DNA from: a virus
Taxonomy: Duplodnaviria > Heunggongvirae > Uroviricota > Caudoviricetes
Length of the DNA: 52,086 nt
IMG/VR virus record: IMGVR_UViG_3300012281_000001
Reading direction: 5' to 3' (one strand)
The position numbers and the translations under genes are program-made. A model generated the notes under the pieces. That model was not told the DNA's origin and did no database searches. It saw only the letters and a program-made list of their open reading frames with translations. Shown here in pieces: positions 4,402 through 10,910 of the stretch. Each line of letters begins with the position of its first letter. Position 1 is the stretch's first letter.

Positions 4402-4557
4402 GTGTCATCCAAGGTTAATTATGAGTCGCTGGCATCGGTCATGCCGCGTAATGAACAGGAAACAGATGCTGTAGTGGACCCTGTAATCGCTGAAATGAAT
4501 GCTCGCCTGGAGGCTGAATTTGCAGCTGAGAATGAACATACCACCCAGGGCGACTAG
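4402..4557 (+). CDS. small hypothetical protein
   Basis: ORF 4369..4557; GTG at 4402 is 6 nt after GGGAGA; overlaps the start of the next gene by 26 nt. Confidence 0.3.
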   Translation: MSSKVNYESLASVMPRNEQETDAVVDPVIAEMNARLEAEFAAENEHTTQGD

Positions 4558-5161
4558 GACTGTTTTTTGTGTCGGTAGCGGTCCGTCACTCACTCGTGAG
4601 GACTGTGCTGCTATAGAAAAAACTGGCTGTTCAATCATCGCGGTTAACAATTCCTGGCAGATGTTCGATGACATTTATGCCTTATACGCCGGTGATTTGT
4701 CATGGTGGAAGCAATACGGTTCCACCATACCGGGAGGGAGGTTCCGCAAAGTGACAGCCAACCTGGCGGCGGCGAAATCATTTTCGTTGGAGTACAGGCG
4801 ATATTGTGGACCGGCGGAAGGGGTAAATAGCGGCGCGCAGGCTATCAGTCTGGCGGCTGAATCAGGGGCTGAAGTAGTTGTATTAGTCGGCTATGACTGT
4901 TCTCTGCAAAACGGCCTTCATTGGCATGGAGCACACCCTCAAGCACTACGGAATCCAACGCAGGTATCTATTTCAAAATGGCAACAGCAGTTCCTGGATA
5001 CCCGCAAAAAACACGCAGATTTACATATTTTGAATGCAAGTAGGAGCAGTGCAATTCAATGTTTCCCAAGAATAAATTTAGAGGCAGTGATCGCGTTATT
5101 ATCGTCGGCAGTGGCCCAAGCGCCGCAAACTTTGTTGCGCCGCGCGGAGTGCCGATTATAG
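4532..5161 (+). CDS. DUF115-like Rossmann protein (GxGPS motif; sialyltransferase/MptE-like fold)
   Basis: CVGSGPSL near N-terminus, then NSGAQAISLA...VVLVGYDCS and HWHGAH, resembling DUF115/GT42-type proteins; ATG 4532 in frame with ORF 4499..5161. Confidence 0.55.
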   Translation: MNIPPRATRTVFCVGSGPSLTREDCAAIEKTGCSIIAVNNSWQMFDDIYALYAGDLSWWKQYGSTIPGGRFRKVTANLAAAKSFSLEYRRYCGPAEGVNSGAQAISLAAESGAEVVVLVGYDCSLQNGLHWHGAHPQALRNPTQVSISKWQQQFLDTRKKHADLHILNASRSSAIQCFPRINLEAVIALLSSAVAQAPQTLLRRAECRL

Positions 5162-5676
5162 CGGTCAATGGGGCCATCGACTGGCTTAACCGCGCTTCTT
5201 ATTTTTTCACCCTTGATCCATCCCCAGACAATATGCGGCGCGTTGGTCGTGGCCGCCGTCGCCGTGGTGTTTGTTATTGCATGGCACTACCCGATGTTAA
5301 AGAACGTGAAGTCAGCGATGGCGTTCTGTGCTTGGCTGAACGCGGCATGGAGCCAAAAAATACGAATTCTCCCGAGTGGTGGGCGTGGCGCTGGTCCGCA
5401 CATTTCGGCCTTTGCGAAGATGAGAATGAAATTGCCAGCGGCAATAGTGCATATGGTGCTCTGAACCTGGCTTTCCATATCGGATTCAAACATGTAGCCC
5501 TGGTGGGCGTTGACGCTACACAAGAACCACGCGTTCACTCCGGCGGCACGCCAAAAAATCTAAGTCACCTGCCTTTGTTATTCCAGTCTGCGCGTGAACA
5601 GATTGACGTTGTTTCATGCGGGAAAATGGGAGGTATTCCGCAGATGACTCTTAAAGAATGGCTGAAGAATACATGA
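5059..5676 (+). CDS. DUF115-like Rossmann protein, paralog of 4532..5161
   Basis: [12 protein letters not shown]...IIAVNG and [10 protein letters not shown]...VALVGVD mirror the upstream gene; AGGAG SD before ATG 5059; overlaps upstream gene by about 100 nt. Confidence 0.55.
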
Positions 5677-6350
5677 TGGCACCCACAATTTATCACCGTA
5701 TCGACGGTACCAAATACAGGAATGTCTGGGTTGTTGGTGATCTGCATGGTTGCTACACCAGACTGATGTCCGAACTCCATCGTGTGGATTTTGACCCGGC
5801 GCAGGATTTACTGATATCGGTCGGCGACCTTATCGATCGCGGTACTGAAAATGTCGAATGTCTGGAACTATTGCAGATGCCCTGGTTCAGGGCAGTGATG
5901 GGGAACCATGAGCGGTTGATGCTCGATGCGTTAAGTCCTGATGGCAACGTGAATAACTGGCTAATGAATGGTGGACAATGGTTCTTCATGTTGGACACTG
6001 ATCAGGAAATATTAGCCAGGGCGCTGGTGGAGCTGGTAAGACGTCTGCCCTATATCATTGAGTTGAACACCGGGCAAGAAACTATCGTTATAGCCCATGC
6101 CGACTATCCGGATAATGAATATCAATTCGGTAAGGAGGTGCCGCTTTTCAACGTTGTCTGGGCGCGCGAGCGTATCAGTGATTCGATGGATGATATTGGT
6201 GGCGAAATTTCGGGCGCAGATCGTTTTATCTTTGGTCACACTCCGGTGAAAAGCCCGAAGACATTCTGGAATCAGCATTATATCGACACTGGTGCCGTAT
6301 TTTGCGGAAACCTGACATTGATGAAAGTGAAAGGTGATGGTGCAGCATGA
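5673..6350 (+). CDS. ppp: Ser/Thr protein phosphatase, lambda PPase family (metallophosphatase)
   Basis: GDLHG, GDLIDRG and GNHE motifs; end-to-end resemblance to lambda phosphatase as remembered; ATG overlaps the upstream stop (ATGA). ORF track starts at 5658. Confidence 0.85.
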
Positions 6351-7048
6351 AGATTGCTTTAGTTCTTCGCTCTGGTGGTGACTATAACGCTTCCGATGTG
6401 CAGTGGCTGGTTAATCAACTGCCAAAAGGCTATGAAATTATTTGCCTGACAGACCTGAAGCGTTTACATGTACCTGGCGTCAAAGTTATCCCATTGATCA
6501 ACCAGTGGCAAAAGTGCCGTGGCTGGTGGGCGAAAATCGAGTTGTTCCGACCGGATATAACCGATGATCTGTTCTATCTGGATTTGGACACGGTTATTGC
6601 CGGTGATATACGCCCAATCCTTGAGAATCCACCAACCAGCTTCACCATGCTTAGGGATTTTTACCATCCACAATATCGTGGTAGCGGTGCCCTGTGGATA
6701 CCAAATAGTGTAAAAGCGCATATCTGGAGTGCATTCTGGCAAGATCCGGAAGGTTGGATTGCTCGTTGTGTTACTACTGAATGCTGGGGTGATCAGGGGT
6801 TTTTGCGGAAGGTTATGGGTGATGATACACCAGCATTTCAGGATCTGTATCCGGGATGGTTTGTAAGTTACAAGGCCGATGTTGTGGAACCTGGTTCGAA
6901 ATATGCGAGCGCGCGTTACTCCAGGGGGAATGGGGCATTACCAAAAGACTGCCGAATAATCTTTTTCCACGGCAAACCGCGACCTCGCGAAGTGTCAGAG
7001 GATTGGCTTCCCCTCATTAGCTCGTTTTTTGAGCGAGAATCAGAATAA
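6347..7048 (+). CDS. putative nucleotide-sugar transferase-like protein (DxD motif)
   Basis: 233-aa ORF, ATGA-coupled to ppp; N-terminal strand KIALVL and [11 protein letters not shown] resemble GT-A fold DxD transferases; assignment is motif-level only. Confidence 0.4.
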
Positions 7049-7049
7049 T

Positions 7050-9192: not shown

Positions 9193-9208
9193 TTGCTCTA
9201 ATAAATCT
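9192..9208 (+). promoter_or_regulatory. C1-operator-like site
   Basis: ATTGCTCTAATAAATCT, 16/17 to consensus; begins at the last base of the HAD gene stop. Confidence 0.65.
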
Positions 9209-9386
9209 TGATTTTTAAAACAGAGAAAGTGAAAATAAAAACATGCCGCAAGGCGCGGCATGTATCCAATCAATCACAGGAGCTGAAAATATGAACACGG
9301 CATTCAAAATCATTATGGCCGCGATCTATTTCTGGCTGTTCTCTATCACTTTTGGCGGCATCGTCGCACATGGGTAAGGGGGATGC

Positions 9387-9984
9387 ATGAAAGGCGAAGT
9401 GAAAGAGCGCGGCATGATTTTTAACGATGAGATGGTCCGGGCAATTCTTGGCGGGAATAAAACACAGACTCGCAGGATTGTTGAAGAAAAATTCTATGGA
9501 CGGGCAGTGGCCGCAGAGTTGCTTGCCAAGCATTGTCCATATGGTCAACCGGGCGATCGTATTTGGGTTCGCGAAACCTACCGGGTACATGGCAAAGCGA
9601 CGGACGTCGCAACGNNNNNNNNNNGTCGCAACGTTGGTTTATCGCGCAAGTGTGCGTAACTCCTGGACAGAACAAACGCACCGGGTTCCGGTCGAGGTTT
9701 GTAATAAACCAGTATCAGAAAAGTGGACGCCATCAATTCACATGCCGCGCTGGGCATCGCGCATTCTTCTGGAAATTACCGACGTGCGTGTGGAACGGCT
9801 ACATGACATGAGCGAGGCAGATGCTAAAGCAGAAGGCGCAACTCCGGCGACGTACAAGATTACGCCATCTGAAGCTGTTTATCGCGTTGGTTTTGGTGAT
9901 ATCTGGCGCAGTATTTACGGGCAGGATAACTGGCTATCTAACCCGTTGGTATGGGTAATCGAGTTTAAGCGCATTCAGGAATAA
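9387..9984 (+). CDS. ASCH-domain protein (frame restored across assembly join 9615-9633)
   Basis: FNDEMVRAILGGNKTQTRR fits the ASCH GxKxxExR-type signature; ORFs 9387..9659 and 9427..9984 fuse in frame when N10 plus the duplicated 9-mer gtcgcaacg are removed. Confidence 0.55.
9615..9624. other. N-run (assembly join) flanked by a duplicated 9-mer
   Basis: GTCGCAACG occurs on both sides of the 10 N; removing N10 plus one copy restores the ASCH gene frame. Confidence 0.85.
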
Positions 9985-9987
9985 ACC

Positions 9988-10910
9988 GTGAGTATGCATC
10001 AAGTCGTCAGCTTTTCAGGTGGACGAACATCGGCTTATCTCGTTCATCTGATGGAAGCACAGCGAAAAGCTGGCGCTAGCGTCCATTTCATTTTTATGGA
10101 TACCGGCTGTGAACATCCTCTGACGTATCGCTTTATTCGTGAGGTTGTGAAGTTCTGGAACGTACCGCTAACGGTGTTGCAGGTCGATATAAATCCAGAA
10201 CTTGGGCAGCCAAATGGTTATACGGAATGGGAACCAAAGGATATTCAGACGCGAATGCCGGTGCTTAAACCGTTTATGGACATGGTTAAAAAGTACGGTA
10301 CGCCATACATCGGCGGCGCGTTCTGTACCGACAGGCTAAAACTCACCCCTTTCACGAAATATTGCGATGACCATTTTGGGCGAGGGAATTACATCACATG
10401 GCTCGGTATTCGTGCGGACGAACCCCATAGGCTGAAACCGAAACCGGGCGTCCGGTATCTTGCCGAACTGTCAGATTTTGATAAGTCNNNNNNNNNNNNN
10501 NNNNNNNNNNNNNNNNNNNNNNNNNNNNNNNNNNNNNNNNNNNNNNNNNNNNAAAACAACCTTTTGATTTGCAAATCCCGGAGCACCTCGGGAACTGTGT
10601 TTTTTGCATCAAAAAGTCAACGCAAAAGCTGGGGCTTGCATGTAAAGACGAACCAGGTCTGATGCGGGTTTTTAATGAACTGGTTACAGGCAAACACGTC
10701 AGGGATGGTCAGCGCAGAACAGGTAAAGACGTTATGTACCGTGGCCACCTGACGCTTGACGGGATTGCCAGAATGTATGCCGACAGTGACTACAGAAATT
10801 TGTATCAGGCTATGGTGCTGGCCAAGCGGTTTGATACTGGTTCGTGTTCCGAATCATGTGAAATCTGGGGTGACCAATTGGAGTTGAAATTCGAAGAGGT
10901 AGTGGAATGA
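9988..10910 (+). CDS. PAPS-reductase-family (PP-loop ATP pyrophosphatase-like) protein, interrupted by N-run 10488-10552
   Basis: VVSFSGGRTSAY PP-loop and FMDTGCEHP motif; C-terminal part continues in ORF 10569..10910 with Cys-rich segment; GTG 9988 or ATG 9994. Confidence 0.6.
10488..10552. other. N-run (assembly gap)
   Basis: 65 N inside the PAPS-reductase-like gene. Confidence 0.9.

Follow-up and report, generated by a model that had tools for sequence, protein, structure and literature searches.

The viral record IMGVR_UViG_3300012281_000001 (Caudoviricetes; 52,086 nucleotides, referred to throughout as the window) carries between positions 4532 and 10910 a compact block of genes, several of them encoding transferase- and phosphatase-type proteins; three of these genes, pmgO, pmgP and pmgQ, are the main subject of this report. 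Megablast comparison with phage records identified the block as part of a P1-like phage-plasmid. Window positions 4532–9442 (query 1–4911) were 98.3% identical to phage P1, and the stretch from 4532 to about 9800 (query 1–5267/5309) was 97.5–97.7% identical to P7, SJ46 and RCS47; among complete records, the one nearest to the downstream part was an IncY plasmid of Salmonella (96 kb, 98.8% identity). The gene names used here (pmgN, pmgO, pmgP, ppp, pmgQ, pmgR, pmgS and pap) are those of the P1 annotation, and the same genes are named hdmA-D, ppp, shtA/B and pap in P7. The window has the same gene set, gene order, operators and overlaps as the pmgN–pap region of P1, but downstream of the operator OpmgT, where P1 has pmgT/U/V, it has a pmgT allele of P7 type together with a NinC-like gene. 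The block is thus the pmgN–pap region of a P1-like plasmid with two exchangeable accessory genes added. The locus as such is already known as annotated P1 backbone with common accessory genes, and public annotation also covers its similarities at the level of domains. A preliminary description, made from the sequence without database searches, had listed eight open reading frames (ORFs) on one strand and suspected the conserved pmg/ppp/pap backbone of P1. All block ORFs were indeed found on the plus strand, the eight were present as described, and the backbone assignment was confirmed by gene-by-gene comparison, nucleotide identity and the P1/P7 annotation; pmgN and the essential pmgR, both within the region, had been left out. 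The features of the block are as follows.

4342–4358, minus strand: C1 operator Oppp (Op83), identical to the annotated P1 operator; predicted to control the pmgN–pmgQ unit.
4369–4557, plus strand: pmgN, 62 amino acids with no recognisable domain; matches phrog_2350.
4499–5161, plus strand: pmgO, DUF115/MptE-like protein with a Maf/sialyltransferase-like fold.
5059–5676, plus strand: pmgP, distant paralogue of pmgO, overlapping it by 103 nucleotides in the -1 frame.
5658–6350, plus strand: ppp, Ser/Thr metallophosphatase of the lambda NinI type.
6347–7048, plus strand: pmgQ, GT-A fold, GT8-like retaining glycosyltransferase with a DxD motif.
7050–7066, plus strand: C1 operator OpmgRa, match to the C1 consensus, paired with OpmgRb.
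7099–7115, minus strand: C1 operator OpmgRb, match to the C1 consensus, paired with OpmgRa.
7130–7348, plus strand: pmgR, essential head-completion gene (PMC9024508).
7350–8612, plus strand: pmgS, coiled coil at about residues 60–230 and a C-terminal domain.
8632–8671, plus strand: intrinsic-terminator-like hairpin between pmgS and pap, an 11-pair stem followed by TTTTT.
8686–9192, plus strand: pap, stand-alone HAD phosphatase of the PNKP 3'-phosphatase type.
9192–9208, plus strand: C1 operator OpmgT (Op88), one mismatch to the consensus and present in the P1 annotation; predicted to control the variable downstream unit.
9387–9984, plus strand: pmgT allele of the P7 Upf86.8 type, weakly ASCH-like, with a 10-N gap at 9615–9624; intact in the relative L003.
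9994–10910, plus strand: NinC-type PAPS-reductase-like (PP-loop) gene with a 65-N gap at 10488–10552; absent from P1 and P7.

C1 operators of P1 are 17-bp asymmetric sites resembling ATTGCTCTAATAAATTT that overlap a promoter, and the consensus was searched for with at most three mismatches. The whole window gave 12 matches, against 0.23 expected by chance. Three of the operators predicted in this way lie in the block, and a fourth, Oppp, is identical to the P1 site and carries four mismatches to the consensus, hence its absence from the scan. The P1/P7 annotation puts Oppp, the OpmgRa/OpmgRb pair and OpmgT exactly at the operator-like sites of the preliminary description, and the repressor control proposed there is well supported by these consensus matches and identities. 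The site pattern differs from that description in what it implies, however: rather than bracketing a single block, the operators are predicted to divide it into three adjacent C1-repressed transcription units.

Unit 1: pmgN-pmgO-pmgP-ppp-pmgQ, the sole coherent enzyme set of the block.
Unit 2: pmgR (head completion) and pmgS (coiled coil), then, past the terminator-like hairpin, pap.
Unit 3: accessory genes that can be exchanged, in this window the pmgT allele and the gene for the NinC-type PP-loop protein.

Coupling by ATGA overlaps, thought to be the rule in the block, was found at just two junctions (ppp/pmgQ and the PAPS-reductase-like gene with the gene after it); the others are overlaps of 19–103 nucleotides, one 1-nucleotide gap, or gaps of 73–194 nucleotides. 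Nine more C1-operator-like sites lie outside the block (3436–3452, 24344–24360, 26104–26120, 26568–26584, 26651–26667, 28192–28208, 28668–28684, 38646–38662 and 42496–42512), which is consistent with a P1 regulon intact across the window.

Within unit 1, PmgO and PmgP proved to be distant paralogues (BLASTP E 0.002; a PmgO hidden Markov model matches PmgP at about 6e-7), in agreement with the two paralogous DUF115-like proteins noted at the outset. The start of pmgO is likely the ATG at 4532. A sequence search of the PDB with PmgO gave nothing significant, and fold or profile methods were needed to obtain matches. By these, the two proteins share a Rossmann-like fold typical of Maf, MptE and GT42 enzymes; Maf is among the best structural matches of PmgO, whose PHROGs label is sialyltransferase. 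When the N-terminal GxGPS nucleotide-binding motif was looked for, SGPSL was found in both proteins. The invariant residues of the PmgO family, D66, S111 and D133, follow the same order as E324, D415 and a Ser of Maf, the comparison being one of order alone. The DUF115/MptE-like family PF01973 was matched at E<0.01 by 34 of 37 PmgO-family members (best E 3e-8). Compared with the Maf flagellin nonulosonic-acid O-glycosyltransferases and the GT42 enzymes Cst-I/Cst-II, PmgO and PmgP are minimal domains of about 180–205 amino acids that lack the flanking domains of Maf. Maf enzymes attach nonulosonic acids to Ser/Thr of flagellin by O-glycosylation and can use the CMP-Kdo of ordinary E. coli as a Kdo donor (bioRxiv 10.1101/2020.06.03.131540).

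The 103-nucleotide overlap of pmgO and pmgP (5059–5161, -1 frame) is kept in relatives down to about 45% identity. This conserved overlap, together with a natural PmgO–PmgP fusion in the locus L008, prompted the idea of a programmed -1 frameshift joining the two proteins; it was not supported, the canonical slippery heptamer A_AAT_TTA (5074–5080) being missing in the SSU5-like locus L076 and in L084.

PmgQ, described earlier as a DxD transferase-like protein, was placed by structure. Its AlphaFold2 model (pLDDT 95) returned GT8 enzymes as all of its top Foldseek matches (best E 1.8e-8), including the Skp1 alpha-galactosyltransferase, glycogenin, LgtC, GlyE and WbbM, and the motif D79-L80-D81 is invariant across 55 homologous sequences. 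PHROGs labels the protein a glycosyltransferase. PmgQ thus shares the GT-A fold and an invariant DxD with glycogenin, LgtC, Skp1 alpha-GalT and GlyE, but TM-scores to GT8 enzymes are only about 0.55 and identities 11–17%. By sequence, nothing significant was found in the PDB (best 6mw5, E 0.086), and no Pfam family, Glyco_transf_8 included, matched at E<=0.1. Because of the low TM-scores and identities and the lack of a Pfam match, we regard PmgQ as a distinct phage family (phrog_1962). There are no NCBIfam models for PmgO, PmgP or PmgQ, nor for PmgR, Pap or the pmgT allele.

To the known locus, comparative synteny adds a new result. When related loci were searched for with the PmgQ alignment, nearly all contigs found were P1-like. 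More distant loci were reached with a degenerate DNA pattern encoding the PmgO motif LLGYDCS..G.HWHG, which gave 120 more IMG/VR loci; this pattern leaves out most P1-type sequences, a few SSU5/P1-like contigs still being matched. The following architectures were counted among loci outside the P1-like set from the PmgQ-alignment search.

PmgO-like gene followed by a GT9-like partner of about 280 amino acids: 84 loci.
pmgO, pmgP and pmgQ in this order: 7 loci, a count that includes P1-type and duplicate entries (L003 is a P1-like plasmid; L102 and L076 are one contig, as are L165 and L084).
pmgO followed by pmgQ: 5 loci.
Fused pmgO–pmgP followed by pmgQ: 1 locus.
pmgQ alone: 7 loci.
pmgO alone, on short fragments: 28 loci.

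In P1 and in relatives at identities as low as about 40%, PmgO, PmgP and PmgQ are encoded next to one another. In L084 the three genes lie, without ppp, between a spanin-like gene and the terminase. In L008 a 376-residue protein (P0171) has a PmgO-like N-terminal half (E 3.5e-36) and a PmgP-like C-terminal half (E 4e-68), and its gene is directly followed by a pmgQ homologue (E 1.5e-39). PmgO occurs together with PmgQ in L083, L085 and L088. The partner of about 280 amino acids is called GT9-like because its profile (A5) matches the ADP-heptose heptosyltransferase WaaF at E 3.8e-4 and, weakly, the protein heptosyltransferase TibC. By its gene order across these relatives, the trio is a conserved module. 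A second glycosyltransferase gene, GT8-like or GT9-like, accompanies the PmgO-like gene in almost all cases. Given the MptE-like matches, PmgO and PmgP could instead be MptE/TPK-like pyrophosphokinases that make a small phosphorylated metabolite; the recurrent adjacency to a glycosyltransferase would then be incidental, and we consider this the most improbable of the explanations weighed here.

The surroundings of these genes outside P1 also recur. In Pfam scans, the upstream neighbours are portal, gp6-like connector and head-completion proteins, and the downstream neighbours are HK97 gp10-like, tail-completion gp17 and tail-tube genes, with cassette genes often overlapping structural genes by 4–8 nucleotides. 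PmgO-type cassettes often add a Methyltransf_23, a Methyltransf_21 (FkbM) or a polysaccharide pyruvyl transferase. In L089, for example, a head-completion protein gene is followed by PmgO-like (MptE-like), methyltransferase, PmgP-like, PmgQ-like and HK97 gp10-like genes with overlaps of 4–8 nucleotides, and in L083 the order is capsid, pmgO, pmgQ. PmgQ-like genes stand between Mu-F/capsid and tail genes in L090 and L004, L090 having a pyruvyl transferase gene between capsid and PmgQ-like genes, and in the podovirus-like contig L005 a capsid gene precedes an FkbM methyltransferase gene followed by a PmgQ-like gene. In Pseudomonas phage D3 the PmgO-like orf6.5/orf7 comes after the major capsid gene, and genes for proteins of 275 and 205 amino acids precede the tail genes. 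PmgO-like genes were present in 60 isolate records, every one with a Gram-negative host.

A three-gene cassette was also observed between the head- and tail-completion genes of many HK97-like and D3-like siphoviruses, all with Gram-negative hosts. It consists of PmgO-like, GT9-like (about 280 amino acids) and Methyltransf_23 genes, and was seen in L007, L089, L092–L211 and L212 (phage D3 orf7, orf12 and orf13). We know of no earlier characterisation of this cassette.

Collectively, the folds, motifs and synteny make it probable that PmgO, PmgP and PmgQ form a glycosylation module. The identity of its acceptor is a more tentative matter. A virion protein is suggested because the cassettes, with glycan-tailoring enzymes, are found time and again within late operons of head and neck genes; we put this forward as a possibility somewhat short of even. 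In the proposed mechanism, PmgO, PmgP and PmgQ would act together in the cytoplasm during lytic growth and build a short glycan from host sugar nucleotides. PmgO and PmgP would likely use a CMP-ulosonic acid such as CMP-Kdo as donor. GT8 enzymes use UDP-hexoses, and a UDP-hexose would be the donor for PmgQ, whose GT8 matches comprise both protein and lipooligosaccharide (LOS) transferases, several of the best being protein glycosyltransferases. Ser/Thr residues of a phage virion protein would be the likeliest acceptor, and the modification would be dispensable for plaque formation in the laboratory.

Published genetics of P1 fits a dispensable modification. Gonzales et al. 2022 (PMC9024508) made in-frame deletions of P1 genes including pmgN, pmgO, pmgP, pmgQ, pmgS, pmgT, ppp and pap; plaquing was normal and antirestriction unchanged in 24 of 29 single-gene knockouts, and loss of any one of these eight genes affected neither. 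A CRISPR interference survey likewise found pmgO, pmgP, ppp, pmgQ, pmgS, pap and pmgT non-essential (PMC10695390). If the module decorates the virion, no plaque phenotype is expected of the P1 deletions. A precedent exists in mycobacteriophages, whose glycosyltransferases modify capsids and tail tubes according to the account of Freeman 2023 given in PMC10877033. As in that system, the presumed glycosyltransferases are phage-encoded, and relatives of the module add a methyltransferase and adjoin capsid and tail genes; the enzyme families differ, however, the hosts are Gram-negative, and in P1 the system is known from its genes alone. Freeman et al. are said to have found in 2023 that the mycobacteriophage virion glycosyltransferases are dispensable for plaque formation.

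The same dispensability could mean that the block has no coherent function and that unrelated accessory genes merely lie side by side in P1. All genes but pmgR are non-essential (PMC9024508, PMC10695390), and ppp, pap, the pmgT allele and the NinC-like gene each occur independently of pmgO, pmgP and pmgQ, as unrelated cargo would. The three pmg genes themselves, however, stay adjacent to about 40% identity, and a PmgO–PmgP fusion exists; we regard the lack of any coherent function as quite unlikely.

Several observations weigh against a virion glycan. The PF01973 scores of PmgO (23.4 bits) and PmgP (21.0 bits) are both under the gathering cut-off of 34.6 bits. The 84 loci with a PmgO-like gene and a GT9-like partner probably represent few related lineages, so that independent observations are far below 84; roughly seven distinct genomic contexts were counted, many loci belonging to related HK97-like or D3-like lineages. 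No glycan is reported on P1 virions, neither in two cryo-electron microscopy papers nor in the virion proteome paper, although this absence is weak evidence as regards cryo-electron microscopy, because flexible glycans are easily missed. In P1 the module lies behind a C1-controlled sigma-70 promoter of the early type and not within a late structural operon, and since non-structural genes are commonly inserted in late operons, the position in other phages is by itself no proof of a virion target. Finally, GT8, GT9 and WaaZ-like families are also families of the lipopolysaccharide (LPS) core, which makes LPS a plausible acceptor.

This last point opens the main rival explanation, in which PmgO, PmgP and PmgQ alter the nascent LPS core during lytic growth and thereby cut superinfection or the loss of progeny that adsorb to debris and neighbouring cells. 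The terminal glucose of the LPS core is the P1 receptor. PmgQ is similar to LgtC of the GT8 family, and the protein commonly paired with PmgO-like proteins is similar to the heptosyltransferase WaaF; a WaaZ_KDO_III match, though faint, was obtained with P0171. The isolate hosts of PmgO-like genes are all Gram-negative. Against it, C1 represses the genes in the lysogen, which excludes classical lysogenic conversion. In other phages they belong, through translational coupling, to late operons of head and neck genes, and expression at that stage comes too late to replace the LPS already on the surface. Single deletions in P1 also bring no plaque-forming defect (PMC9024508). We consider an LPS target unlikely, while keeping the cell surface, one of the two targets named in the preliminary description, as a live rival.

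The early-type C1/sigma-70 control in P1 would also suit a module that helps takeover or counters defence by glycosylating a host protein, as glycosylating toxins and effectors with a GT-A fold do, and protein glycosyltransferases (glycogenin, Skp1 GalT, GlyE and Maf) are among the top structural matches of PmgQ and PmgO. In most relatives, however, the genes sit in late structural operons, PADLOC gave no defence-related match for the three proteins (nor any match for Ppp and Pap), and the deletions have no plating phenotype on laboratory hosts (PMC9024508). The chance that a host protein is the acceptor therefore seems slim. The best explanation overall, and one we hold with some reserve, is that the block would comprise three C1-repressed units, of which the first carries a dispensable PmgO/PmgP/PmgQ module that glycosylates a virion protein.

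The remaining genes of the block were assigned by the same profile searches, and the lambda-type phosphatase, coiled-coil protein and HAD phosphatase of the preliminary description correspond to Ppp, PmgS and Pap, respectively. Ppp matches Metallophos at 59.1 bits (cut-off 21.5) and carries the motifs GDLHG, GDLIDRG and GNHE; it belongs with phrog_246 (NinI-like), and PrpA/PrpB-like NCBIfam models fall under their equivalog cut-off. With lambda NinI (lambda protein phosphatase) and E. coli PrpA/PrpB it shares the Metallophos domain and the GDxHG, GDxxDRG and GNHE motifs, and according to the P1 annotation it is 64% identical to the lambda phosphatase; unlike lambda NinI, it is embedded between pmgP and pmgQ. 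This position was seen in the P1/SSU5-like lineage only, and Ppp was absent from every distant locus with PmgO, PmgP or PmgQ that was examined; ppp would thus be a lineage-specific insertion into the module. PmgR is essential, and its loss leaves heads and tails unjoined (PMC9024508). PmgS gave coiled-coil-type matches only. Pap (168 amino acids) matches HAD_PNKP at 46 bits (cut-off 27.6) and phrog_415, shares with the 3'-phosphatase domain of T4 Pnkp this above-threshold match and the DxDxT motif (DIDGT in Pap), and has no kinase domain; lacking a kinase domain or ligase partner, it is therefore not an end-healing enzyme of the T4 type.

In unit 3, the pmgT allele is 43% identical to P1 PmgT over residues 1–239. 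Profile and fold searches supported seven of the eight domain calls made in the preliminary description; the eighth, ASCH (PF04266), was matched weakly by this protein (15.3 bits against a cut-off of 21.2, E 0.033) and at E<0.01 by 6 of 54 remote homologues. The ASCH motif GxKxxxxR was looked for and found as GGNKTQTRR, in which K25, T28, R29 and R30 are invariant and G23 nearly so; P109 is also invariant in the PmgT/ASCH-like family, and the motifs PSIHMPRWASR and VERL are conserved. The family is very large (42,819 clusters at 50% identity, E<0.001). No match was found in the PDB by sequence, and the best 120 homology matches were all near-identical proteins, none with a Pfam label.

The NinC-like gene (window 9997–10910, query 5466–6379) matched, at about 92% nucleotide identity, solely 'NinC / PAPS reductase' genes of Shiga toxin (Stx)-converting and other lambdoid phages. 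It stands alone in 581 phage records, the majority of them from Vibrio, Stx and Salmonella phages. The earlier assignment to the PAPS-reductase family holds for its N-terminal domain, which matches PAPS_reduct (PF01507) above threshold (38.7 bits) with only profile positions 3–80 of 175 aligned, and fails for a full-length CysH-type domain, the protein falling far under the cut-offs of the cysH, APS-reductase and PAPS-reductase NCBIfam models. It belongs to the PAPS-reductase superfamily through the N-terminal PP-loop only. In PADLOC the best match was SspD (8e-14), followed by BrxP and DndC. An N-terminal PAPS_reduct/PP-loop domain and an SGGRTS motif are shared with lambda NinC, SspD/DndC and a Vibrio phage PAPS-Dam gene, but the alignment with this group covers the first 80–145 residues or so, and there is no Dam fusion. 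In Vibrio phages, a PAPS-reductase domain fused to Dam gives resistance to the Dnd system (10.1101/2021.05.05.442762). By analogy, the NinC-like protein is a candidate counter to phosphorothioate-based defence, which we regard as a reasonable lead.

Such proteins speak for the leading idea of the preliminary description, one nucleic-acid modification or anti-restriction pathway spanning the whole block. The PP-loop SspD/DndC-like protein, the PNKP-type phosphatase and the weakly ASCH-like protein are all present, and domains of these types do occur in nucleic-acid pathways. A single contiguous pathway is nevertheless hard to reconcile with three separate operator-controlled units, a terminator-like hairpin and an essential pmgR inside the block, and with parts that occur independently: PmgO, PmgP and PmgQ recur without the other block genes, and among the scanned relatives (mostly P1-like IMG/VR contigs) the pmgT/ASCH-type gene was found in 41 loci and the PAPS-reductase-like gene, absent from P1 and P7, in only 6. 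To our knowledge, GT8 and Maf-like folds belong to protein or glycolipid transferases and none is a DNA glycosyltransferase, which likewise counts against a nucleic-acid target. The published single deletions speak against restriction evasion, at least for the systems tested there, since they leave antirestriction unchanged (PMC9024508). A DNA-modification or anti-restriction role for the block is accordingly disfavoured, and we rate a single such pathway as very improbable.

Several further features were observed around these genes. Just past OpmgT, a perfect 10-pair hairpin at 9241–9263 has a T-run on the minus strand only and would stop transcription running leftward into pap, although no gene in that orientation is evident in the vicinity. 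Between OpmgT and the pmgT allele, a 28-residue hydrophobic ORF (MNTAFKIIMAAIYFWLFSITFGGIVAHG) lies at 9291–9377 with an AGGAG ribosome-binding site; this region is also present in P1, whose annotation has no gene there. Downstream of the NinC-like gene, positions 10907–12702 hold small lambdoid-type genes (phrog_1226, phrog_1344 and phrog_2457) and a gene for an Ead/Ea22-like protein; with these, the OpmgT unit looks like the early accessory region of a lambdoid phage transplanted into P1.

The assembly of the window is a draft joined from scaffolds, with seven runs of N (834–843, 1373–1411, 9615–9624, 10488–10552, 26694–26703, 48120–48294 and 49752–49761), four of them exactly 10 N long. The last two block genes hold one run each, of 10 N (9615–9624) and 65 N (10488–10552). 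A duplicated GTCGCAACG flanks the former, the latter stands in place of 21 nucleotides in a relative, and the ungapped relative plasmid L003 reads through both genes. Deliberate masking and true frameshifts were rejected as explanations in favour of scaffold joins, given the duplicated flank and the intact relative. Upstream of the block, pmgM (VRR-NUC; 3758–4335) has a 1-bp deletion relative to P1 in a T-run near 3953/3954 (CAGG-TTTC against CAGGTTTTC), which splits the gene into ORFs 3758–4057 and 3934–4335. The deletion reflects either a genuine frameshift or missequencing of the homopolymer.

For P1, the analysis yields a specific, cheaply testable hypothesis for three long-unassigned genes and their many relatives, for which P1 deletion mutants already exist. 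More broadly, and with still greater reserve than for P1 itself, the PmgO/PmgP/PmgQ module and the PmgO-like/GT9-like/methyltransferase cassettes of D3-like and other phages may represent a widespread, unrecognised system by which phages of Gram-negative bacteria O-glycosylate head, neck or tail proteins of their own, drawing on the sugar nucleotides of LPS precursors (CMP-Kdo, ADP-heptose and UDP-hexose). Most demonstrated cases of virion glycosylation known to us are from actinobacteriophages. If this proposal is true, P1 would be a tractable model for such modification, and its occurrence in P1-, D3- and HK97-like phages would matter for the stability of phages, their recognition by the immune system and their use in therapy.

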